Below are positions 47,907-61,561 of a stretch of DNA of 64,000 bases, one piece after another. Source of the DNA: Candidatus Helarchaeota archaeon (GTDB lineage: Archaea > Asgardarchaeota > Lokiarchaeia > Helarchaeales > RDOG01). The stretch spans positions 73,669 to 137,668 of the forward strand of contig JAHPZH010000003.1 of the NCBI GenBank assembly GCA_019058315.1, read 5' to 3'. The position numbers and the translations under genes are program-made. The notes below the pieces were generated by a model. That model was not told the origin of the DNA. It saw only the letters and a list, made by a program, of their open reading frames with translations, and made no database searches. Each line of letters starts with the position of its first letter. Position 1 is the stretch's first letter.

Positions 47907-49628
47907 TTAACTAGAATCAAATTGCTCGATTTTCTTTTCCACTTCTTCTAAATTACCCTCCAATTTCTTAAGAACATTTTTAAATATTTTTTCTGTCAAC
48001 TCGCCACTTTTAAATTGTTTCGCTAACAATTTCATTTTAAATTGAATATTCTCTTTTTCTTTATTTAATTCTTCAACTTCTTTAGGTATTTTTACCGTTT
48101 TTACTTTAGGCTTAACTACTGGTTTTGGGGCAGGTTTTACAACTGGTTTTGGGGCAGGTTTTACAACTGGTTTTGGAGCCTTTTCGAATGTTTTTTGAAG
48201 ATCTTCTTTAATTTTTGCTTCTCTTTCTTTTTTTACTCTCTCTTCATCTGTTACTTTCTTTTCTTCCTCTGCTTCTTTCCTTCTTTTCTCCAACTCCTCT
48301 TTCGCTTTCTCCTCTTCTGCTTCTTTTTTCTTTTTTTCTTCTTCTATCCTTCTCTTTTCTTCTGCTTCCATTTTCTTTTTTTCTTCTTCCATTTTTAAGA
48401 GTTCTTGCTCTTGCTTTAATTTTTCTTCTTCTTCCTTCATTATTTTTTCCATTTTTTCCTTTTCTTTCTTAACAATATCTTCTTCTATGGAGTCTTTAGT
48501 TATTGGTGATGGTGTGGCTTCTTCAGGAATTATAGGTTCAGAACTAGTTTCTGAAGATACTTGAACTCCTTGTTGAAGTTCAGCTAATTTTGAATGTAAA
48601 AATTTAGCTTGTGCTTTAAAATGCTGCATTAAGTCTTCTTCTTCAAGAACTACACATAAATCAGCAATAGCATCGAATTTCTCGGCAGCAAGTTGAATAT
48701 TCCCAGCCATAATAGCAGCTTCGGCTTCTGCAATTAGTCTATCACGTTCTAAAAGAGGTTTAATAAAGGGAGCAATCAGACTTCTAACTTTTATTGTGTC
48801 TGCTATGATATTTAACATAGTTTCTCTGTTATTAGGATCGATGGCGATCATAGCGTAAGTTTTATATCCTAGATATTCCTCAATTTCTTCTGGGACCATG
48901 GATTCTGGTAGATCTTGTTTATTAGCAACTATAGCTATTCGAGCATGCGGTTCCTCTTTTTTTATTAATTCAATAAAAAATTTAGATTCACGAACATTTT
49001 TTGGAGAAGAATCAAGAATTAGTATTACCGAATCAGCACCTTTAATAAATTTATTCCAAACAAAAGAATATTTTTCCTGTCCTGCAAAATCCCAAAGATA
49101 TAAATTAACATGACCTAGCTTTATTGTCGCTACATCACCTGTTATTGTTGGTACATGGCGCATTGGGATATCTTCAGCACGAATTAATCTTGTTAATGTT
49201 GTCTTACCTACACCACTAAATCCAACAAGAGCTATTTTTGGACGTAATTCTTTGAATACTTCATCAGCCACTTCATGGAACCCTTCATATGCAGCTGAGT
49301 CTTGTTGCAAATCAATAATTGAATCATACTTTGAAAAAAATTCGTTTCTTATGATTTCTAATTGTTGAGTTATATTATCATTATCGTCAGTTAGGTCTGT
49401 TATGAAAATAAATAATAGATTATGATCAATATCAGTAGCATAAGCGATTTTAAAATTAATTATATTCATAAATTCAATCGTATTTTCTTTAGCATCTTTT
49501 AAAAAGTCAATTAATGATACTAATATTGGTGATAGAGCTTGGATTGATATTCCTTCCCCATATGTCCTTTTAAAAATTTGAAACTTTTCTTTGAGAATAA
49601 GGATTTCACGAAGCATCTTAATTACCAA
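47907..49628 (-). CDS. Longin-like domain + Arf/Rag-like small GTPase + helical and charged low-complexity tail
   Basis: GFSGVGKT (G1), PTIT (G2), WDFAGQ (G3), NKQD (G4), an EK-rich helix and (PKPVVKPA)n. Confidence 0.85.
   Translation of the reverse strand: MVIKMLREILILKEKFQIFKRTYGEGISIQALSPILVSLIDFLKDAKENTIEFMNIINFKIAYATDIDHNLLFIFITDLTDDNDNITQQLEIIRNEFFSKYDSIIDLQQDSAAYEGFHEVADEVFKELRPKIALVGFSGVGKTTLTRLIRAEDIPMRHVPTITGDVATIKLGHVNLYLWDFAGQEKYSFVWNKFIKGADSVILILDSSPKNVRESKFFIELIKKEEPHARIAIVANKQDLPESMVPEEIEEYLGYKTYAMIAIDPNNRETMLNIIADTIKVRSLIAPFIKPLLERDRLIAEAEAAIMAGNIQLAAEKFDAIADLCVVLEEEDLMQHFKAQAKFLHSKLAELQQGVQVSSETSSEPIIPEEATPSPITKDSIEEDIVKKEKEKMEKIMKEEEEKLKQEQELLKMEEEKKKMEAEEKRRIEEEKKKKEAEEEKAKEELEKRRKEAEEEKKVTDEERVKKEREAKIKEDLQKTFEKAPKPVVKPAPKPVVKPAPKPVVKPKVKTVKIPKEVEELNKEKENIQFKMKLLAKQFKSGELTEKIFKNVLKKLEGNLEEVEKKIEQFDSS
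48118..48176. repeat. 24-bp coding tandem repeat (actggttttggggcaggttttaca, about 2.5 copies) encoding PKPVVKPA units
   Basis: Two exact copies plus a partial third. Confidence 0.9.
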
Positions 49629-49888
49629 TTAAATGATTTCAAGCAAAACATTAATATTTATCGTTATTTCCAATAAATTCTATTTTATTTCTAAAATGAA
49701 ATAATGACTTTAACTTTATCGAATTACTATTAAAAAAATTACTTATTTTTATCGCTTTAAGTTCAATGCTATTACTATTATTTTAAGAAACTCAACTTAA
49801 AATTAAAAATAGATTGTTTAAATTAGTTATAATTAACCAATAATTAATCAAAAATAGAAATATGGATTGGTAATTTATTATCAAGCGT

Positions 49889-50980
49889 CTAATGTTCTTT
49901 GAACTCACCATAGCGGTCTTGAAGTATTCTTAAATGTTCAATTAGAATATAATCAGGTTGAGAACCTTCATAGTAGATTTGGCGGATTTTATCAATTAAA
50001 TATTCTGGGAACACATATTTTACTTTAATATCCGAACGTAAAAACAGATATTCGTTGCCCTTTTTATCCTTTAAGACCGATATCATTTGAGCATCCCAGA
50101 GTCTTTGTAATGTTTCATCAAAATTTTCGATACTTCCATACAACCTTTGATAAGTCTTAGATTTTTGGGAAACTGGAGCTACTCTTAATTCTTTAATCAC
50201 AGTATAACAGTTCATATCCGTAATTAAATCAAGAATCAATTCTGTGTCTTCTGGATTTGGTGAGTATTTTTCAAAAAATGTTCTCACATCATCCATATAA
50301 TTTTTAAGAACGGATGGATCCAGATCTTTCATTGTTTTTGAACGTACAATAGATGCTCTTGGAGGGACTCTACTTACGAAAATATCCCCGATGAGGAAAA
50401 TAGATGAACTAGTCATTGCTTCTAAAGTTTCTTCACGTATTAGTTTGTTTCGAAGCATACTATTCACAATCGAGTCAACATCGATATATTCGCTCCCATA
50501 TTTATCTCTTAACCAAGCTGAAAGCTCAGATTTAGTAAGTGTACTGTCTTCTATGAGTCTATCTAAAATCATTTTTTTGATAGGATCTAGAAGTATTAAT
50601 GCCAATTTTTGCTCATCAGTCATTTTAGGATAGGTAGCGATATGTTTGAAATAACCAGGAAGTTCTTCAATATATTTTTTTCCTTTTAGTTGTGACATTA
50701 CTCTTCTTATTGTATCGGATAAGATATCTTCATAATCTTCTGGGCTTTCATCAATTGAAAGGAGTACAACCATATAATAATCAGTATCTCCAGTATAATA
50801 ACTGGCAAGATTTAAATCACCAATACTAAGTGAAAGAAATCCCGCTTCTTCTTCAAACTCGTGATTGGTATAAATTTGCTTCGTAATAGTGTCGTTAACA
50901 TCAAGATTTTCTGGATATTGGGCTTCAACCCGCATACCATACTTTTTATCCCATTTAATTACACTAATTCCAAAAAGCAT
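49889..50980 (-). CDS. Longin/uDENN-like domain + winged-helix domains (NPRL2/NPRL3-like architecture)
   Basis: GISVIKWD..YG..VEAQYP N-terminus, LTKSEL..WL...DVDSIVNSMLRNKLI wHTH-like segment and a second similar segment. Confidence 0.6.
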   Translation of the reverse strand: MLFGISVIKWDKKYGMRVEAQYPENLDVNDTITKQIYTNHEFEEEAGFLSLSIGDLNLASYYTGDTDYYMVVLLSIDESPEDYEDILSDTIRRVMSQLKGKKYIEELPGYFKHIATYPKMTDEQKLALILLDPIKKMILDRLIEDSTLTKSELSAWLRDKYGSEYIDVDSIVNSMLRNKLIREETLEAMTSSSIFLIGDIFVSRVPPRASIVRSKTMKDLDPSVLKNYMDDVRTFFEKYSPNPEDTELILDLITDMNCYTVIKELRVAPVSQKSKTYQRLYGSIENFDETLQRLWDAQMISVLKDKKGNEYLFLRSDIKVKYVFPEYLIDKIRQIYYEGSQPDYILIEHLRILQDRYGEFKEH

Positions 50981-51526: not shown

Positions 51527-52645
51527 TTATGAGACAGGTTTCCAAATTATCCCTAGTTTATCAGCATAATTTCTTGCTTCTTGAATTTCATCTCTTGTGA
51601 GACGGCGATTAATATCGGAAAGTATCGGATCATAAGGAACTTTGTGGGAAGGATGGTATTGTGCCATTACATTTACTATTGCACGAGGACAATTTTCGGC
51701 GATCCAATCCAATATAGGTTTTGTGCAACATTCTACATGGTTAGGCATTACTAAATGCCGTATAATCATTTCACCATTATCATTATCATGGGCCATTTTA
51801 TGATTTCTTGTCGTAATTTCCCAGAAATTAGTTGCATTTGAAAGTTTTTTTGCACATTCATCATTTCCATATTTGAAATCGGGAAGCCAGAAATCCATTA
51901 AGTCAAGGATAAGCTTCATTGTTTCAAGAGAACAATAATGATTGGAATTCCAGAGTTGGGTTATGTTTTGAGTTTGATATTTTAGCGACTCAATGATAAA
52001 ATATGTGTTTGGAAGTGGTGTAACGTAATTAATATTTCTAGCTTTTTCTTCTCTAGCTAGATGATTGGCGAAATGTCCCAATTTTTCAGATGAGGCGTCA
52101 ACACCAGCTTTAGGTTTGGTCGATATATCCCAATTTTGACAAAATTTACACGAAAATACACAACTGCAAAAAAATATCGTACCAGAAGGAACTAAAGGAG
52201 GTTCTTCTCCAAAATGTAAATGCGCACTAGAGATGTTTGCTACATTTCCAACTTTACAATACCCCAATTCACCATTTAAACGATTTATTCTGCACTTTCT
52301 CTCACATAAATGGCATTCAGACATAATCCTCCTACCCAATTCTATTTTTAAATCCAAATAAGAGGTTTTAGGAATTCTGAGATCCCTAAAAGTTAGCTTT
52401 CCTTGATCGATCTTTTTTAAAGTCTCTTTGAAATCCAAGCTTAGTTTCTCATGTTCATACCATAAATTTTCATTTGATTCAGATAAATTGATTTCTGCAG
52501 GAACTTTCTTTGCAATTTGGTATTTTGCAATTCGTTCATTATTCATAATAGCGTAATATCTACTTAATCTATCTTTAACTTCTTTTTTTTCCCATACTTT
52601 TACTGCGTCTGGTCTAACTACACGCCACATTGCAGTTCGATCCAA
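51527..52645 (-). CDS. pflX: Radical SAM protein, PflX family
   Basis: CHLCERKC, HFGEEPPLVPSGTIFF, CVFSCKFCQN, DFKYGN and RHLVMPNH.ECC motifs. Confidence 0.88.
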   Translation of the reverse strand: MDRTAMWRVVRPDAVKVWEKKEVKDRLSRYYAIMNNERIAKYQIAKKVPAEINLSESNENLWYEHEKLSLDFKETLKKIDQGKLTFRDLRIPKTSYLDLKIELGRRIMSECHLCERKCRINRLNGELGYCKVGNVANISSAHLHFGEEPPLVPSGTIFFCSCVFSCKFCQNWDISTKPKAGVDASSEKLGHFANHLAREEKARNINYVTPLPNTYFIIESLKYQTQNITQLWNSNHYCSLETMKLILDLMDFWLPDFKYGNDECAKKLSNATNFWEITTRNHKMAHDNDNGEMIIRHLVMPNHVECCTKPILDWIAENCPRAIVNVMAQYHPSHKVPYDPILSDINRRLTRDEIQEARNYADKLGIIWKPVS

Positions 52646-53379: not shown

Positions 53380-53913
53380 ATGACAATGGGATTAACCTAC
53401 AGATGTAAGTTAATATTATTTGGAAATGCTGCAGTTGGAAAAACATCAATTATTGATATGTATGTAAATAATAAATTTGAAGAAGAATATATTTCAACTC
53501 TTGGTTATAATGTTTTTGAAAAAAGTATTAAAATGAAGGATGAAAATATAGTAAATTTTATGATTTTTGATATAGGGGGACAAGAACAGTTTGAAGAACT
53601 AAGAAAGAAATATGCCGCTGGTGCTAAAGCCGCTCTTTTAGTTTATGATGTTACAAATAGAGAATCATTTGAAAACATAAAAAAATGGCAGAATGATCTT
53701 ATCAATTTTACAGAAAATGCTACTTTTATATTAGTTGGCAATAAAGTTGATTTAGAAGATGCAAGACAAATTCAAAAAGATGAGGGAGAAGCTTTAGCTA
53801 GTGATATTGGAGCGTATGGATTTTTTGAAACCTCAGCAAAAACAAATACAGAAATCGATGAAGCATTTCATAAATTAGCACAAGCATATTTAGAAATAGT
53901 TATCTCAAAATAA
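53380..53913 (+). CDS. Rab-like small GTPase (paralog 1)
   Basis: GNAAVGKT, YISTLG, FDIGGQE, LVYDVT, GNKVD and ETSAK motifs. Confidence 0.93.
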   Translation: MTMGLTYRCKLILFGNAAVGKTSIIDMYVNNKFEEEYISTLGYNVFEKSIKMKDENIVNFMIFDIGGQEQFEELRKKYAAGAKAALLVYDVTNRESFENIKKWQNDLINFTENATFILVGNKVDLEDARQIQKDEGEALASDIGAYGFFETSAKTNTEIDEAFHKLAQAYLEIVISK

Positions 53914-53942
53914 GTAAATTATAATAATTTCTATTTTTTTAA

Positions 53943-55064
53943 TTATCTTGAAAACAATTCAGCAACTATATTTTCTACTGGATAAAATACGTCGATATTC
54001 CCGTCCCAATCCTTTAGGATGTTCTGATATAGATTTTCAACTTTATTAATAAATTGTTCTAAATTAAAAATTATTGAATTTAGTTTTTCATTGCTAATAA
54101 ATACTCCTGTAAGAAATTTACCGGAAAATATGTTTACTATCTTTCCTCTCTTCTCAATGATAGAGATTTTAGCGTCCGAAGCAGGGATTAGCTCTTCTAA
54201 CATAATATTAACGCTTGTTATAGCGCCAGACATTAAGACTTCAGTGATTTTTGCATCCTTATCAATAAATGATTTATAAAATGCACATAGACCAGAAGAT
54301 TTATCTATTAGAAGAATTTCTTCAACTTTACCTTGCCAATCAAATTCGGAGAACGGAGGTAGCTTTATGAAGAAACGAGATATTAATCCAAAGGATATTA
54401 ATTGAAGCACAGCTCCAAATAATTTGAATTCTAGACCAAATAATTTTAGGAAAAAATCAGTTGAAAATACTATACCTATTGATAATAAAAAAATCGGTGG
54501 AATAACAGTTATTAACTCAATTAGGACGTTTTCTTTATTCTTTGCTTTCTTAAAAAAATCATTGAAATACATTGTGATAAATAAGAGGACTATTGGTCCA
54601 TAAATATATAATGAGATTCTAATAATGGTTAAATTGAATAAAAATAAAGAATAAAAGAATATTACAAGCGAACCTAAACAAGTTGTAAAGAAATATTTTT
54701 TATAAACATATATTTTGTACTTTTCAATAAAATAAACAAGAATTAATGCACCAAATATAAAGGACATGTAGCCTAAATTAAGAAATAAATCCCGGAAACT
54801 ACCACTACTCCAAATAATAAAGGGGGAAATTACAAAATTTGAAGAAAAATAGTCACTAATAATTAAAAAAAGTCTCATAAGAGAAAAATCAAAAAAGAAA
54901 TAAGAAAAACCGAGTTCTTGAGATGATCTAAGTTGTTTTGGTTGCTTTAAATATTTCATAAAAAATATTATCCCAAGTTCTAACGAAATAACAGCATTTA
55001 TCCATTCTACTATTAATAATGGAATTCTTAATGGTCCATAAATAGGAAAATCGACAAATACCAT
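53943..55064 (-). CDS. 7TM membrane domain + C-terminal longin-like domain (type 2)
   Basis: About 7 hydrophobic helices, linker LPPFSEFDW, then ILLID..SG.C.F / LMSGAITSV / LYQNILKDWDGN. Confidence 0.75.
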   Translation of the reverse strand: MVFVDFPIYGPLRIPLLIVEWINAVISLELGIIFFMKYLKQPKQLRSSQELGFSYFFFDFSLMRLFLIISDYFSSNFVISPFIIWSSGSFRDLFLNLGYMSFIFGALILVYFIEKYKIYVYKKYFFTTCLGSLVIFFYSLFLFNLTIIRISLYIYGPIVLLFITMYFNDFFKKAKNKENVLIELITVIPPIFLLSIGIVFSTDFFLKLFGLEFKLFGAVLQLISFGLISRFFIKLPPFSEFDWQGKVEEILLIDKSSGLCAFYKSFIDKDAKITEVLMSGAITSVNIMLEELIPASDAKISIIEKRGKIVNIFSGKFLTGVFISNEKLNSIIFNLEQFINKVENLYQNILKDWDGNIDVFYPVENIVAELFSR

Positions 55065-55075
55065 TTAAATACCCT

Positions 55076-56275
55076 TTAATCTTTTAATATACTTTCTATC
55101 AAGGTTGTAAAACCAATAAAAAATTGCTCCTGTTTTTCCTTTAAACTATCTAAATTTAATAAAATCTCCTTATAGTATGATTCAAAGTTTGATTTAATAC
55201 TCTTCAAAAAATAACGATGACTGGCTATATCTTTTTTAACAGATAAAGCGTATGTAATATTAAATGGTTTTATTCCATATTCCAATAGAAGAATAGAATC
55301 TTCATGTTTTATTTTGCTAATTTTTTCAGTTTTTGTATCAGTTATTTGAGTAATTATTGATTCAATTCCCATAATTCCTCCTGTAAGCAGCTTTTCCTTA
55401 AGATATTTAGTAGCATCGTCTTCAATTTCATTTTCAGAGCTATTTTTTTTAATTAGTTCCGTTAAATCACAATAAAAAAGACCCTTGTTATCCTTTTGAT
55501 TAATTATAAATAATTTTAAAAGATTATCTTTCCATTCAAATTCGTAGAAAGGGGGAAAATCATTAGCAGAAAAAAATATTATAATAAATCCTGTTAATAA
55601 AATAGATACCCCTATATAATATACAAATTCATTTAATCCTGGAGGAAAAATACCCAATCCAACCTGTACTGCAAAAACAATTGAAGTAAGACTTATAATT
55701 TCACCAATAAAAAATTGGAGAATTTTTTTTCTAATATCACCTACAGCTTTTTTAATCAATTTAATTTGAAAATTAAGAATGTAATAAGCTCCAGAAAGCG
55801 TAAAGATAATACTAATAATAAAAATTGGTGATCTTGTTGAGGGTAATGCAATAACAGCTATAATAGGTATAAAACTTAAGGCTGTTAGAATTTTTACAAT
55901 TTTAAGATTCATTATTGAGGAAAATTCCTCTAATATAATAAAAGAGAGAAATCCAATTGGGGCGGAAAAACCAAAAATCCAACCAATTCTAGTATAGATA
56001 TCTCTTAATCTTATATTAGTAACAAAAAGTCTTGATACATTTAAAAATAATGCACCCAGCACAATGAAAAAGGTAAACGCCCCAAATGATAACAATATTC
56101 TATTTAATTTAAGATTAACATCCTGAATTTTATGGTATTGATAAAAAAAGTAGATAGCTAGTTGAATACCAATAACAACGGCAGCAAAATAAACTAAAAA
56201 CTGAATTTCTTGATTAGGGGTAATTTGAGAAAGCATTATACTAATTACTTCAAACAATGTGGAACCCCTTTTCAT
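55076..56275 (-). CDS. 7TM membrane domain + C-terminal longin-like domain (type 1)
   Basis: About 7 TM segments, linker FPPFYEFEWKDN, LFIIN, GGIMGI, LLEYG and FESYY. Start may be ATG 56236. Confidence 0.75.
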   Translation of the reverse strand: MKRGSTLFEVISIMLSQITPNQEIQFLVYFAAVVIGIQLAIYFFYQYHKIQDVNLKLNRILLSFGAFTFFIVLGALFLNVSRLFVTNIRLRDIYTRIGWIFGFSAPIGFLSFIILEEFSSIMNLKIVKILTALSFIPIIAVIALPSTRSPIFIISIIFTLSGAYYILNFQIKLIKKAVGDIRKKILQFFIGEIISLTSIVFAVQVGLGIFPPGLNEFVYYIGVSILLTGFIIIFFSANDFPPFYEFEWKDNLLKLFIINQKDNKGLFYCDLTELIKKNSSENEIEDDATKYLKEKLLTGGIMGIESIITQITDTKTEKISKIKHEDSILLLEYGIKPFNITYALSVKKDIASHRYFLKSIKSNFESYYKEILLNLDSLKEKQEQFFIGFTTLIESILKD

Positions 56276-56477
56276 TATATTTTAATTATAATCTATTTTT
56301 ACCTCATATAACGATTTTTTAATCTATAATAGAATAATAATCTTTAAAATATTTATTAAAAAATTATATGTCTGGATATAAATATCAGATATTTTATGAA
56401 TAATATATCAATAAATTTTAATTTAAAAAAATAAAATAGAAATTAGTTTTTATTATATGTTACTGGGAGATTTTATA

Positions 56478-57002
56478 ATGGAACACGAATTCAGATTCAA
56501 ATTAGTACTCTTCGGTAATGTGGCTGTAGGGAAAACCTCTATAGTTGATAGATATATAAATGATAAGTTTGAACAAGAATATATATCAACTTTAGGATAT
56601 AATGTTTTCGAAAAAAATATTGATGTGGGCGGAACTAGTGTTGCATTTATGATATTCGATATTGGAGGACAGGAACAATTTGAAGAGCTTCGGAAAAAAT
56701 ATGCAACAGGTGCAAAAGCAGCATTCTTAGTTTATGACGTTACAAATAGAGAAACATTCGATAATATAAAAAAATGGAATATAGATTTAGAGAAATTTTC
56801 AGACAATGCAACATTTATTTTAGTCGGGAATAAAGTTGATTTAGAAGATTTAAGAAAAGTACAGGTAAGAGAGGGAGCAGACTTAGCAAATGATATAGGT
56901 GCTGTAGGGTTTTTCGAAACTTCGGCAAAGACAGGCGAAGGAATAGATGATTCATTCTATAGATTGGCTCAAATATTACTAGAGAAAATGAAAAAATCAT
57001 AA
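56478..57002 (+). CDS. Rab-like small GTPase (paralog 2)
   Basis: GNVAVGKT, YISTLG, FDIGGQE, GNKVD and ETSAK motifs. ATG 56478 follows GGAG and is preferred over 56457. Confidence 0.93.
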   Translation: MEHEFRFKLVLFGNVAVGKTSIVDRYINDKFEQEYISTLGYNVFEKNIDVGGTSVAFMIFDIGGQEQFEELRKKYATGAKAAFLVYDVTNRETFDNIKKWNIDLEKFSDNATFILVGNKVDLEDLRKVQVREGADLANDIGAVGFFETSAKTGEGIDDSFYRLAQILLEKMKKS

Positions 57003-57100
57003 TATATGAGAATAAAAATTTAATAGTTATTCAATTTTTTATCGTTCTATTAATATTTAAATGGTTTTTTATTTAAATTATAGGAGCATGGAAGCATATA

Positions 57101-58222
57101 TTGATAATTTTTAATACAATAAGAGAAGCAATGTTACGATTGGACTTTTTAATTGTTATTCTCACCATTGAATTATCTTTAATTTTTATCAGGCAATGGT
57201 ATATGGATAAGAAACAAAAATCTGAAAATATAGTCTCCCTTAGTTATGGTATTTACTACCTAATCATAGGACTAGGTTTTGCAATATATTCAATAAGAAG
57301 ACATTATCTTAATAATAACCCATTTTGGAGATTTTTTGGAATTCAATCGAATTATTCATATTTTCTTTTTATTTTAGCAATATTTAGTATGTGTTGTGGA
57401 TCACTTCTATTTTCTTTAGCACTAGAGTTTAAATACAGAAAATTTTTAAAAACCAAATTTAGTTTTTCGCTATTTTTAGCAAGTCTATTATTTATGCTTT
57501 TAATTTTTCAAAAAACACCTTTTTTTTTCCCAATTATTAATTCATTTGCTGTCTTCTCTGCACTTTTTCCATATCTATTTATTTATTATTTAATTGTAAA
57601 TACATTAGGAAGAATTAGAAAAAAACTAATTTTTGGAGCAATTTCTTTAACAATTACAATTATTGGATTGGCGGGTGTATCAGACCAAGGTATAATGATT
57701 TTAAAAAATGTTTCGCCTTATTTTGAACCTTATTTAATTATATTTCAATTATTAGGTGTGTTTGGATTAATTTTATTAATCCTTTCTTTTTGGGGGTTTA
57801 ATTTATTATTAGAAGCTCAATGGAAAGGGAATATAATATCACTTTTTATAATCGATAGATATAGAGGAGATCCTTTATTTACAAAGAAATTTTTGCCAGA
57901 TATTCGAGATGTTGAAGATACAGATGGATTTTTAGCGAAAGGTTTAAAGGGTATTATAGGTCAGATAAGTGAATTATCAGAAACCAAAAAAAACTTACAT
58001 ATTATAGATAAGGAAAATTTAAAAATTGTATTACATTATGGAGAAAAAATTGTTTCTGCTTTATTGATAAGAAGAGAATTAATGAATATTAATTATATTC
58101 TTTCAAAAATAACACTAAAATTTGAGGATAATTTTCTGCCTTTTTATGATTCATGGTTAAAAGAGGATGATATTTTTAAGCCAATGGATAAAATTATTGG
58201 AGAATTAATTCCAGGTATTTAG
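57101..58222 (+). CDS. 7TM membrane domain + C-terminal longin-like domain (type 1)
   Basis: About 7 TM segments, LEAQWKGNIISLFIID, GLKGI, LHYG and FEDNF...W motifs. Confidence 0.75.
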   Translation: MIIFNTIREAMLRLDFLIVILTIELSLIFIRQWYMDKKQKSENIVSLSYGIYYLIIGLGFAIYSIRRHYLNNNPFWRFFGIQSNYSYFLFILAIFSMCCGSLLFSLALEFKYRKFLKTKFSFSLFLASLLFMLLIFQKTPFFFPIINSFAVFSALFPYLFIYYLIVNTLGRIRKKLIFGAISLTITIIGLAGVSDQGIMILKNVSPYFEPYLIIFQLLGVFGLILLILSFWGFNLLLEAQWKGNIISLFIIDRYRGDPLFTKKFLPDIRDVEDTDGFLAKGLKGIIGQISELSETKKNLHIIDKENLKIVLHYGEKIVSALLIRRELMNINYILSKITLKFEDNFLPFYDSWLKEDDIFKPMDKIIGELIPGI

Positions 58223-58232
58223 GTGCGATTTT

Positions 58233-59297
58233 TTGCTAGAAATAGTATTTTTAGGAGAAAATAGAGAAATAGCTATGGTAGTAGAGGGAATATTAATTTT
58301 ATTATGTTGGCAATTCTCAGTTTATTTTTCATATAAATATTATCGAAATGTAAAAGATCAAAAATTATCAAGAAATGAATTGGATTGGGCACTATTTTTT
58401 GTATCATTTGGATTTACACATTTTTTTTATCAATTTGCGGATTATTATCCAGTGGATCACCAATTTTTTTCGTTTTTGGGTTATATAAGCATGGGTATAG
58501 GGATATTTTTATTCACAACACATTTAGAAAAAATTAAAACGATTCAAACGAAATGGGTATTTCCAGCGATAACTTTTATTATTCTTCTTAGTTTTATAAT
58601 CACTTATATTTATGATCCCAGATTACCACAAACTTTAGCCATTATATTGATTATCCCAGCAACAATTATTATTCCATATTTCATATTTAGGATGTTTAAA
58701 ACTTTAAGTCGTAGATATCAATTCTATACTATAGGTCTATTTGGGGGGTTATCCTTTATTCTGGTTGGAAACCTTGGAGCATCTGATGTTGCCGTTTCCA
58801 TTTTTGGAACATATATAAGGATATTAGCGAGTCTATTAATGATATTAGGAATTAGTTTACTTGCGCTTTTTTTCAATATATTACCCTCACTATCAGAACT
58901 TAATTGGTATGATAAACTAAAATATATTATAATTATAGATCAAACCGGGATTTGCTTGTATGATGAAGATTTCCAAGAAAAAACTAGATTAAACAAAAGA
59001 TTATTAGCTGCTGCTTTATTCAACGTTCATGAATTTTTGGATCAAATGACAAAAGGATTCAAAAAGCTGAAAATTCTTGAAAAAGGAGATGAATTCTTTA
59101 TTTTAGAGTATGGACAACAAGTAATCGGAGTATTAGTAACTACAGAATTATTGGAATCTTTAAAATATCTTTTAAGAAGTTTTGTAATAGAATTTGAGAA
59201 TTTTTATTCAGATATTTTAAAATCTTGGAACGGTGATGCTCGAATGTTTCTCCCCACGTCCCAATTAACATCAAAAATATTCAAAAAGATTCGATGA
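58233..59297 (+). CDS. 7TM membrane domain + C-terminal longin-like domain (type 2)
   Basis: About 7 TM segments, LPSLSELNW, IIIDQTG.C.Y, LEKG and FENFYSDILKSWNGD motifs. Confidence 0.75.
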   Translation: MLEIVFLGENREIAMVVEGILILLCWQFSVYFSYKYYRNVKDQKLSRNELDWALFFVSFGFTHFFYQFADYYPVDHQFFSFLGYISMGIGIFLFTTHLEKIKTIQTKWVFPAITFIILLSFIITYIYDPRLPQTLAIILIIPATIIIPYFIFRMFKTLSRRYQFYTIGLFGGLSFILVGNLGASDVAVSIFGTYIRILASLLMILGISLLALFFNILPSLSELNWYDKLKYIIIIDQTGICLYDEDFQEKTRLNKRLLAAALFNVHEFLDQMTKGFKKLKILEKGDEFFILEYGQQVIGVLVTTELLESLKYLLRSFVIEFENFYSDILKSWNGDARMFLPTSQLTSKIFKKIR

Positions 59298-59345: not shown

Positions 59346-59906
59346 TTGTTTCCAAGATATAATTTAAAAATTCTTGTTATTGGTATTTCAATCGTGATAT
59401 TTTGTGGAATTATGTTTCCAATTTTAAGCTATCCATGGGAATTTAGTGTTTTATTATCAGTATTATTAAATATTGGTCATTCTGTTGCCTTTTGGGGTAT
59501 GATCTTAATTTTTATTAATTTAGTTCTCCATTATACAAGAAAAAGACGTGATTATAAATTTAAGGAATTCGCAATGACTTCTGGACTTTCTTTTATACCT
59601 TTATTGATTTATAATATTTTTATACCAATTTTAAATAATTTAAAATCCGACAATCTCATCAGTGCTTGGGATATTAATTTAATAACGGTCAGTACAAATA
59701 GGGAATCCTTTCAAATCTTGTTTTTTTTCTCAAGGATAATAACAATATTGTGTATTTTTTTCTTTCTTTTACTCTTGAGCTTCAGTATAAGAGATACATT
59801 TGAACTCGAATTAATTAAAGCAATATATCTTTGTATCTTTATTGTACTAATAGCATACTTGATTTCGGATGGTTTATTCACCATATGGGAGTTCTTTGAA
59901 TTATGA
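59346..59906 (+). CDS. Multi-pass membrane protein, Yip1-domain-like
   Basis: About 5 TM segments. F......GLSFIP and LL...IR..F.L...KAI patterns resemble Yip1 domains. Confidence 0.5.
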   Translation: MFPRYNLKILVIGISIVIFCGIMFPILSYPWEFSVLLSVLLNIGHSVAFWGMILIFINLVLHYTRKRRDYKFKEFAMTSGLSFIPLLIYNIFIPILNNLKSDNLISAWDINLITVSTNRESFQILFFFSRIITILCIFFFLLLLSFSIRDTFELELIKAIYLCIFIVLIAYLISDGLFTIWEFFEL

Positions 59907-61135
59907 GAAAACTGGAAACTGCTTTTTTATCTGCGATTCTAATCATTGCAGGTGTTTCATATTTATCATATTGGTGGATTGAAACTGATGTTACGCCACA
60001 GAATAGAGTGGTTGATTTATGGGGAATAGACCCATTTTCTATTGGATTACAATATGGATTATCTTGTAAAAATGAAATTCAAGGTATATGTTCAGGTCTG
60101 ACTCTAGTAGATGGTCTTTTTAAGCTCATTACGAATTTAGCGAGTATTCATTTTACTTTTATAATGCAACCTTTTGTCCCAAAAGAATATCTAATAGAAA
60201 TGTGTGGAGTTGCTTTAGGAGCAGGCGTGACTTATAATCAGATTTTTTTTCTGAATTATATGGCGGATTACATGCAGATATTATCAGAAAGTGCAATGAG
60301 TTGCTCACAATTTATTTTAATCAATAATACTCTTCCAATTTATGGGCCAATGTTTGGACGAACATTAGATTATCCAGGAGACGTGGTGTTGGATAGATAT
60401 CAGGTTATTATAAGACTAAATGACTATCCCGGTAGTGGACATTCAATAATCGGGCATACAATCGCTGGAATGATTGGATACTTAACTGGGATAAATGAAG
60501 AAGGATTAACTATTGGTGTAAGTCAGATTAATCCTCATAAAATTGATATTGGTCCTGGAATGTCTTGTGTATTAGCAATTCGGGATATTCTTCAACATAA
60601 TGAGACTACTGAACAAGCTGCAAAGACTTTTGGTGATTATGAGCGTCATACAGTAGGAGCATGGTGTTTTGCGATATTAGATGGGAATGGTTCTGCAGCA
60701 GTTGTTGAATTAGCTCATAAAATTCCAGATACGCAAGAAGTATTTAATAATACAATAAAGGGTGATGATTTACCTTTCATGGTAATTACCAATCATTTTA
60801 TATCCCCTGAAATGTATCCTCTCTCCGCTCATTCTCAACAATCAGAAGCTAGATTCGATGCTTTACTTCATGAAATTCCAAAAATACCTTATCATGATTT
60901 ATCGTCAGCAATTAATTTATTAAAGTCCCATTATGATCCAATTTTAAAGTGTAACAATCCAGGTCATCGAACCGTATGTAATCATGGAATACAGCCCTAT
61001 CATGGTACAATGGGAGGTTTTATTGGAGTACCTAAGACCCCTATGGCGGTTTTTTGCCTTGGTCGACCATGTGAATCAGATTTTTATATTATGACTTTTG
61101 AGCCAATTAATTATCTCATTGGACCAATTACTTAA
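59903..61135 (+). CDS. C45/acid-ceramidase-like Ntn hydrolase (autoprocessed, Cys nucleophile), N-terminally anchored
   Basis: G.QYG, EM.GVA.GAG, N-x-CS (MSCSQF), GRTLDY, GINEEGL and TNHF motifs. ATGA overlap with the previous gene. Confidence 0.85.
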   Translation: MRKLETAFLSAILIIAGVSYLSYWWIETDVTPQNRVVDLWGIDPFSIGLQYGLSCKNEIQGICSGLTLVDGLFKLITNLASIHFTFIMQPFVPKEYLIEMCGVALGAGVTYNQIFFLNYMADYMQILSESAMSCSQFILINNTLPIYGPMFGRTLDYPGDVVLDRYQVIIRLNDYPGSGHSIIGHTIAGMIGYLTGINEEGLTIGVSQINPHKIDIGPGMSCVLAIRDILQHNETTEQAAKTFGDYERHTVGAWCFAILDGNGSAAVVELAHKIPDTQEVFNNTIKGDDLPFMVITNHFISPEMYPLSAHSQQSEARFDALLHEIPKIPYHDLSSAINLLKSHYDPILKCNNPGHRTVCNHGIQPYHGTMGGFIGVPKTPMAVFCLGRPCESDFYIMTFEPINYLIGPIT

Positions 61136-61147
61136 GGAGATAAAAAT

Positions 61148-61561
61148 ATGGAATTTGAATTAAAAGAAACGAAATTTGAAGAAAAAATAACCCCTATTAA
61201 AATTTATCTAAAAAGAATCTTAAGAATATTAGTCAGTTCATTAGTTGGAATAATCGCAGGATTGGGTATGTTAGTTCTAAATATCTTTTGGTCTATGAAT
61301 TTCATTCCTGAAATATCTTATAATGATAAAATGTCATTTTCAATTATTTCATTAGGATTACAAGCACTTTTCATCTTGGGTCCACAATTTATTGCAGGTT
61401 TTATCTCAACAAGTATTAAAAAGGCATTAATAACAGCAATAGTTGTAACCGCAACTTTAGGTACTATTTCATTTTTGTTTAGTGTAATTCAAGGAGTGGT
61501 AAACTCAGCAATAATTATTCTAGGAATTTATATAGGCGGATATTATGCTGAACGACTTTAA
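61148..61561 (+). CDS. Hypothetical membrane protein (about 4 TM)
   Basis: Hydrophobic segments and GGAG RBS. Confidence 0.65.
   Translation: MEFELKETKFEEKITPIKIYLKRILRILVSSLVGIIAGLGMLVLNIFWSMNFIPEISYNDKMSFSIISLGLQALFILGPQFIAGFISTSIKKALITAIVVTATLGTISFLFSVIQGVVNSAIIILGIYIGGYYAERL

Follow-up and report, generated by a model that had tools for sequence, protein, structure and literature searches.

The window analyzed here, a stretch of 64,000 nucleotides from the genome of a Candidatus Helarchaeota archaeon (GenBank assembly GCA_019058315.1), carries at positions 53380 to 59297 two genes for Rab-like small GTPases (G1 and G2) and four genes for membrane proteins that combine seven transmembrane (7TM) helices with a C-terminal longin domain. 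The membrane proteins belong to two subtypes, T1 (T1a and T1b) and T2 (T2a and T2b), which are paralogs, long separated, of a membrane protein specific to Asgard archaea and are encoded as a tight T1-to-T2 operon. We give about even chances to the reading that T1 and T2 provide a membrane-embedded longin platform that recruits and regulates Rab-like GTPases without a prenylation site. Most likely, T1 and T2 would assemble as a heteromer in which the two longin domains form the platform at the cytoplasmic face of the membrane. This platform would bind the neighboring GTPases, recruit them to the membrane, and set their nucleotide state. Its putative activity is most likely that of a guanine nucleotide exchange factor (GEF), a direction of regulation that we infer because the closest structures and the sole sequence hints are GEF-type longins.

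The source genome (G000) comprises 5.79 Mb in 12 contigs, and the window, which is AT-rich (GC content, 26 to 36%), lies within contig C11. Its nearest relatives in databases are Promethearchaeota and other Asgard archaea. Among sequencing runs, the DNA was traced to sediment metagenomes and to no listed RNA data set. All six open reading frames (ORFs) listed in a preliminary description of this DNA, two Rab-like GTPases and four membrane proteins, were found in place. On the minus strand, T1a (399 amino acids [aa]; 55076..56275) is the upstream gene of the first pair and is separated by an 11-bp spacer from the downstream gene, T2a (373 aa; 53943..55064). The 3' end of T2a converges with that of G1 (177 aa; 53380..53913, plus strand; Pfam Ras, E = 6.2e-50) across 29 bp. 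On the plus strand, G2 (174 aa, or 181 aa from an alternative ATG at 56457; 56478..57002; Pfam Ras, E = 1.3e-48), T1b (373 aa; 57101..58222), and T2b (354 aa; 58233..59297) are codirectional, with gaps of 98 bp and then 10 bp. T1a and G2 diverge from a shared stretch of about 200 bp (56276..56477), which is probably the home of both promoters. As described previously, both pairs run in the order T1 then T2, with spacers of 10 to 11 bp. The two modules are not mirror images, since G2 lies upstream of and codirectional with T1b-T2b whereas G1 is convergent with T2a.

The architecture of these membrane proteins was modeled with AlphaFold2 (AF2) for one member of each subtype, T2a and T1b, and that of T1a and T2b was deduced from alignment and hydropathy. 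The T2a model, built on a 25-sequence paralog alignment, had a predicted local distance difference test (pLDDT) score of 77.6, with transmembrane (TM) helices at residues 13-40, 48-70, 90-118, 125-142, 147-174, 178-200, and 211-234 and the longin domain at residues 247-371. In this domain, two strands (247-254 and 260-265) are followed by a helix (274-292), three strands (300-305, 308-314, and 318-324), a second helix (329-345), and C-terminal helices. The T1b model (pLDDT of 74.1) likewise has seven TM helices and a bb-a-bbb-aa domain (b, strand; a, helix) at residues 245-369, with its elements in the same order as in T2a. Both models therefore consist of seven long TM helices, a short linker with a conserved ExxW motif, and a C-terminal bb-a-bbb-a(a) domain, and both follow the longin order of secondary structure (bb-a-bbb-a-a, a five-stranded sheet sandwiched by helices). 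T1a has seven hydrophobic segments and a C-terminal domain (CTD) matched by a hidden Markov model (HMM) at residues 243-398, with an insert in the longin domain, and the corresponding HMM match in T2b spans residues 220-351. The arrangement first proposed from the letters of the DNA, about seven TM helices, an ExxW linker, and a C-terminal longin domain, was thus borne out by the models of T2a and T1b.

In the family alignment, the mean number of lysines plus arginines was 3.8 for loop 1-2, 3.0 for loop 3-4, and 2.7 for loop 5-6, against 0.5 to 1.1 for the remaining loops. Because loops 1-2, 3-4, and 5-6 are the ones rich in these residues, the N terminus is placed outside and the longin domain in the cytoplasm. 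The T2a and T1b models and the loop charges together give seven TM helices in an N-out/C-in orientation, the topology of G-protein-coupled receptors (GPCRs).

The identity of the C-terminal domain was supported by several comparisons. When the whole model was searched against the PDB with Foldseek, the top 48 matches were all longin or roadblock domains (AP-2 sigma, COPI zeta, LAMTOR, TRAPP, MglB, and LC7), at E values of 3e-3 or weaker. VIA-align, a structural superposition independent of Foldseek, was run on the T2a model and gave the best score with CPLANE (7q3d_C; Z, 14.5; root mean square deviation [rmsd], 2.7 Å over 123 residues), followed by VAMP7 (4afi_B; Z, 13.3), Sec22 (3egd_C; Z, 12.9), TRAPP Trs23 (3cue_A; Z, 12.2), Mon1 (9rs7_A; Z, 12.1), and a Lokiarchaeota longin (8yqg_B; Z, 11.3). 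These longin matches all cover the whole domain (approximately residues 244-373), whereas the roadblock matches are shorter (residues 242-348; Z, 10.8 to 11.6). The long N-terminal helix that precedes strand 1 in roadblock domains was not found in the T2a model, which has only a 4-residue helix at residues 243-246. As modeled, the order of strands and helices in the C-terminal domain is that of a longin and not of a roadblock.

Sequence comparisons pointed the same way. The five top matches of the CTD profile against PDB sequences were all TRAPP longins (Trs23, E = 8.9e-4). When 25 single members were scanned against Pfam, weak matches were obtained to Sybindin (5 members; best E value, 0.0033), Fuz_longin_1 (2 members; 1.3e-4), and Intu_longin_1 (2 members; 0.0025), and T2b itself matched Sybindin faintly (E = 0.058). 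At full length, the four membrane proteins had no Pfam or NCBIfam match above threshold. The assignment of a longin fold in the preliminary description therefore survived examination by Foldseek, VIA-align, the CTD profile, and the weak Pfam matches.

The split into T1 and T2 becomes clear once relatives are included. The four proteins of the window are distant paralogs with 17 to 29% identity, and pairwise BLAST within the window fails to split the subtypes, T1b and T2b scoring above T1a and T1b. A tree of 57 sequences was built, including 14 upstream and 14 downstream genes of pairs. All 14 upstream genes, T1b among them, formed one clade, and all 14 downstream genes, including T2b, formed another together with two extra copies from contig C5; each clade had a Shimodaira-Hasegawa-like approximate likelihood ratio test (SH-aLRT) support of 94, and none of 500 label shuffles did as well. 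Hence, the division of the four proteins into two reciprocal clades, unclear without relatives, was confirmed. The T1-to-T2 order is kept in four pairs of the source genome and at 10 loci spread over six further genomes from the same class, with spacers of 7 to 40 bp.

The two clades mirror each other in their branching. L084, L080, L082, and L086 contribute the upstream genes that join T1a and the downstream genes that join T2a; T1b and T2b fall with the C5 copies; and L079/L085 and L081/L083 couple in both clades. This mirrored branching indicates that the pair was inherited and diverged as a unit, which is the pattern expected of two cooperating subunits. The same tree disposes of a recent duplication of the module as the origin of the two pairs. 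T1a shares 52% identity with the upstream gene of L084 and the counterpart figure for T2a is 41%, compared with approximately 20 to 25% between T1a/T2a and T1b/T2b. T1a/T2a are thus orthologous to pairs of other genera, and T1b/T2b lie on a lineage-specific branch. A second locus in the source genome, on contig C5 (1284350-1292965; L013-L018, L040, and L041), consists of a T1-T2 pair, an unrelated 146-aa gene on the opposite strand, a T1-T2-T2-T2 array, and two GTPases.

The ExxW linker and the subtype motifs noted at the outset persist across genomes. N43, E238, and W241 are invariant in 14 T1 sequences, and E99, G179, G239, E322, W332, and G334 are invariant in 17 T2 sequences. In T2, charged residues are conserved on the outer face (T2a numbering: E20 in TM1, D71 beyond TM2, and R91 and R/K214 where TM3 and TM7, respectively, begin), and further conserved residues surround intracellular loop 2 (E114 at the inner end of TM3, K123, and F126). 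T1 lacks the outer cluster, and its conserved positions are mainly cytoplasmic, namely, N43, which lies in loop 1-2, and the GxIRKK motif of the loop that joins TM5 to TM6. The two subtypes therefore look functionally asymmetric.

Turning to the putative clients, the best solved relatives of G1 are Rabs, including Ypt7 (E = 6.6e-34), Rab3, Rab23, and a Thorarchaeota Rab (7ezb), and its top 60 PDB matches are all Rab/Ypt proteins. G1 and G2 have the P-loop GxxxxGKT and the DxxGQ (DIGGQ), NKxD, and SAK motifs. Together with two GTPases of contig C5, their closest paralogs, they form a distinct subfamily, with scores of at least 223 bits against G1 and 138 bits for the next best sequence. Identity is 59 to 70% among the four members and 35 to 39% to the nearest outgroup. 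All four lack the C-terminal cysteine of a geranylgeranylation motif; for this reason they are called Rab-like rather than Rab, and they would need a protein receptor to reach the membrane. This genome has two T1-T2 loci, with four T1-T2 pairs between them, and all four members of the subfamily sit there. As the four GTPases have near-identical switch regions, they could share regulators. G1 and G2 are not the near-identical proteins they had been taken for, with only 70 to 72% identity.

To examine the association with GTPases, all ORFs lying up to 5 kb from any of 12 T1-T2 loci were clustered. Small GTPases, present at 6 of the 12, were the sole family to turn up at 3 or more loci. In the source genome, a GTPase lies within 300 bp at 4 of 17 family loci, compared with 0.63 expected by random placement (P ~ 0.003). 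GTPases are missing from the surrounding 5 to 6 kb at approximately half of the T1-T2 loci and at nearly all loci of unpaired members, so that the link between T1-T2 and GTPases is real but facultative. As for the synteny claimed earlier, enrichment and the GTPase as sole recurrent neighbor stood, whereas constancy did not, given that only about half of the pair loci carry a GTPase and that those elsewhere come from other subfamilies. At two loci (L079:277-699, minus strand, and L085:3373-3795, plus strand), both in relatives, the pair-adjacent GTPase-like ORFs are only 140 aa long, their first residues corresponding to a point past the P-loop and switch I. Truncation or a frameshift may explain this, or the products may be pseudo-GTPases without a P-loop. 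Elsewhere in the source genome (C2:81208-86451; L038), a 1,570-aa protein with an internal longin-like domain at residues 1139-1265 is followed after 13 bp by a 172-aa Ras-like GTPase and is another candidate regulator-GTPase operon.

Several observations weigh against a longin platform for these GTPases. In addition to the pairs and unpaired members without a GTPase nearby, independent public contigs carry tandem family genes with no Ras-family neighbor. The pair-adjacent GTPases of other genomes belong to other subfamilies and are 22 to 31% identical to G2, and a search of five relatives with T1-T2 pairs found no ortholog of the G1/G2 subfamily, the best match being 49% identical. A Rosetta-stone search found no 7TM-longin-GTPase fusion; the additional length of the 507- to 556-aa relatives consists of N-terminal TM helices or disordered tails and not of a Ras domain. 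Moreover, the relationships among the four GTPases do not follow those of the pairs, as G1 and G2 are each other's closest relatives while T1a/T2a and T1b/T2b are the most distant pairs, and the assignment of one "cognate" GTPase to each pair was accordingly left unsupported. The family alignment contains no family-wide conserved residue that would mark a catalytic site and no conserved arginine, and the sequence matches to longin families that have a name in Pfam (Sybindin, Fuz_longin_1, and Intu_longin_1) all fall under curated thresholds. Finally, longin domains also act independently of GTPases, as in SNAREs and coat subunits. Complex prediction for the longin domains of T1b and T2b with G2 gave 0.58 (runs of 0.58, 0.72, and 0.55), with 0.00 and 0.01 for the partner-replaced controls and 0.67 for the T1b-replaced control, and was used as evidence neither for nor against the platform.

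The same assembly might have another output, serving as a GTPase-activating protein (GAP), or as a passive anchor or an effector of the GTP-bound GTPase, instead of a GEF, which we consider unlikely. Precedents are available for both roles. GAPs are found among roadblock proteins (MglB) and among longins (FLCN-FNIP, GATOR1 NPRL2-NPRL3, and C9orf72-SMCR8), and anchors or effectors include Ragulator for the Rags and the SRX longin of SR-alpha on SR-beta. MglB, LAMTOR, and SRX/SR-alpha are among the structural matches (Z, 10.8 to 11.3), and fold alone cannot separate a GEF from a GAP. The GTPases also retain their own catalytic glutamine (DIGGQ), fitting a GAP of the MglB type, which supplies no catalytic residue. 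However, the top full-length matches and all of the sequence hints are of the GEF type (CPLANE, Trs23/Bet5, Mon1, Fuz_longin_1, and Intu_longin_1). In addition, the family has no arginine conserved throughout that could act as an arginine finger, unlike FLCN, NPRL2, and SMCR8.

It is similarly doubtful that the 7TM-longin proteins are GTPase-independent sensors, transporters, or enzymes that use the longin domain for oligomerization, regulation, or sorting. On this account, the GTPase neighbors would be a by-product of how very densely GTPase and longin genes occur in this lineage, combined with local tandem duplication. The source genome encodes about 44 such proteins, few of their loci have a GTPase neighbor, and the public contigs mentioned above fit the same account. 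Polar residues of the TM bundle are conserved within each subtype (in T2, the outer E20, D71, R91, and R/K214 and the inner E114), which suggests a function of the bundle itself. The 7TM hydrolases ACER3 and AdipoR2 also match the bundle, at Z scores of 11.9 to 12.6. Against this, the GTPase is the sole recurrent neighbor across genomes and is enriched beyond random placement, and the whole G1/G2 subfamily is confined to T1-T2 loci. A hydrolase of the PAQR/ceramidase type was rejected for the 7TM part, as neither conserved histidines nor a conserved His/Asp zinc site of that type is present and the family is N-out; PAQR receptors are N-in, the reverse of the T1/T2 orientation.

A further reading, which we find rather improbable, is a true receptor-GEF in the archaea closest to eukaryotes, in which the 7TM heteromer of T1 and T2 would sense an extracellular or membrane signal and the longin pair would switch on the nonprenylated Rab-like GTPase. 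The outer charged cluster of T2 (E20, D71, R91, and R/K214) would contribute to sensing, with T1 lacking the cluster, an asymmetry reminiscent of the division of labor in heterodimeric class C GPCRs. Beyond the platform, this reading also requires the 7TM bundle to sense something, and the cluster is compatible with such a role. By VIA-align, the 7TM part matched ADGRL3 (Z, 13.7; rmsd, 4.0 Å) and CD97 (Z, 13.4; rmsd, ~4 Å), and similar scores were obtained with designed GPCR-like folds and with the two hydrolases. This level of match is flagged by the tool as common for helical bundles, so "GPCR-like" refers to topology and not to homology; nor did the T1/T2 proteins match a GPCR sequence family in Pfam or NCBIfam. 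For the 7TM part, the GPCR-like character proposed earlier was reduced to a common helical-bundle arrangement. If a receptor-GEF did prove true, it would represent GPCR-like logic built from membrane-trafficking parts, and the approximately 44 paralogs would be a receptor repertoire.

Family members are widespread in Asgard archaea. Since a word-indexed homolog search recovered only 3 proteins, an exhaustive profile search was used for the family counts and returned 521 sequence-cluster representatives at E ≤ 1e-30 and 5,527 at E ≤ 1e-3. Of 121 genomes sampled from the phylum, 110 had a match at E ≤ 1e-10; many of these matches cover the longin domain only, and full-length forms occur in many genera. 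The named relatives, from Hel-, Hod-, Thor-, and Promethearchaeota, are all annotated as "hypothetical protein." In the ESM Atlas, searched by features and by shape, the whole architecture was found only in Asgard "hypothetical protein" clusters. In the source genome, 120 ORFs have a longin-like domain, and the approximately 44 noted above are proteins of 340 to 399 aa with 5 to 8 hydrophobic segments followed by a C-terminal longin domain. The domain also ends approximately 11 tetratricopeptide repeat (TPR) proteins of about 1,100 aa, one major facilitator superfamily (MFS) transporter (C5:824007-825629; L037), and several helix-turn-helix (HTH) proteins. The longin-like domain is therefore a portable module, which is what one would expect if it serves interactions.

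Other genes flank the locus. Three tightly packed plus-strand genes (window positions 59346-61561) begin 48 bp past T2b. Their products are a multi-TM protein of 186 aa, a protein of 410 aa that carries an AAT domain of the Ntn-hydrolase type (PF03417; E = 1.5e-16), and a TM protein of 137 aa. The three genes may be cotranscribed with T1b-T2b; in the clustering of ORFs within 5 kb of 12 loci, they were not kept beside the T1-T2 pairs of other genomes. On the other side, two minus-strand genes (47907-50980) encode a 573-aa GTPase fusion protein (47907-49628) upstream of a 363-aa protein without a clear Pfam family (49889-50980). A 372-aa minus-strand protein (51527-52645) has a Cys-rich motif resembling a radical-SAM cluster site and appears unrelated to the module.

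A longin platform of the kind favored here has its closest parallels in the heterodimeric longin Rab GEFs, namely, TRAPP Bet5/Trs23 (TRAPPC1/C4), Mon1-Ccz1, BLOC-3 (Hps1-Hps4), and CPLANE (Inturned-Fuzzy). T1 and T2 share with them the longin fold, the best structural scores, the only sequence hints, the encoding and evolution of two paralogous longins together, and a Rab-like putative client. They differ in that the known GEFs are soluble, peripherally recruited, and multidomain, whereas T1 and T2 each have one longin domain per chain, fused to its own 7TM bundle; in addition, the putative client of T1/T2 has no prenyl anchor, and GEF activity is putative. MglA-MglB and Ragulator/LAMTOR-Rag also use a platform of the longin/roadblock superfold for a small GTPase, as a putative T1/T2 dimer would. 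Ragulator tethers Rags to a membrane, and MglB is often encoded beside MglA in prokaryotes. T1/T2, however, have the longin topology without the long N-terminal helix, so that roadblock matches extend over residues 242-348 only, and they are attached to the membrane by integral TM helices instead of a lipidated LAMTOR1 or a basic patch.

A third parallel is with GPCRs, which are GEFs for G-alpha, and with AtRGS1, all of which have seven TM helices, an N-out/C-in orientation, and a cytoplasmic module facing a GTPase. AtRGS1, a plant 7TM protein fused to an RGS GAP domain, is a precedent for the fusion of a 7TM bundle to a GTPase regulator (PMC3386157). T1/T2 have no sequence relationship to these proteins, their output domain is a longin rather than an RGS domain or a receptor core, and their putative client is a monomeric Rab-like GTPase.

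As reported previously, Asgard archaea have a large expansion of roadblock/longin proteins (130 Asgard clusters of orthologous genes [asCOGs]) and of small GTPases, and longin-GTPase fusions exist (Liu et al. 2021; Tran et al. 2024, PMC10933270). In MK-D1, GTPase genes are generally not in operons with roadblock/longin genes, making cognate regulators hard to predict (Tran et al. 2024, PMC10933270); the T1-T2 locus with its GTPases is an exception. The available literature on Asgard archaea yielded no account of 7TM-longin fusions or of T1-T2 pairs. A 2026 preprint lists "7TM proteins" among earlier-reported eukaryotic signature protein (ESP) families, an entry that may or may not include the T1/T2 family. 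Longin platforms for Rabs, prokaryotic roadblock platforms, the Asgard expansions of GTPases and longins, and 7TM-GTPase-regulator fusions (AtRGS1) are thus already known. What the available literature did not contain is the combination of a 7TM bundle with a single GEF-type longin, encoded as a coevolving T1/T2 pair beside Rab-like GTPases. If the activity were confirmed, proteins of the T1/T2 type would define a large Asgard-specific 7TM family.

The Rab/Arf/Rag-like GTPases of Asgard archaea number in the dozens and their longin/roadblock proteins more than 100, and regulators can hardly be assigned to their GTPases, since the two seldom share an operon (Tran et al. 2024). The locus described here is a rare testable candidate for how Asgard GTPases without a lipid anchor reach the membrane and are controlled there. 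G2 together with T1b and T2b is a concrete candidate set that can be cloned, T1b and T2b being the nearest homologs of TRAPP/Mon1-type longins that are themselves integral to a membrane. Should binding and exchange be confirmed, the switch by which a longin pair controls a Rab would predate eukaryotes and would originally have been an integral membrane device.

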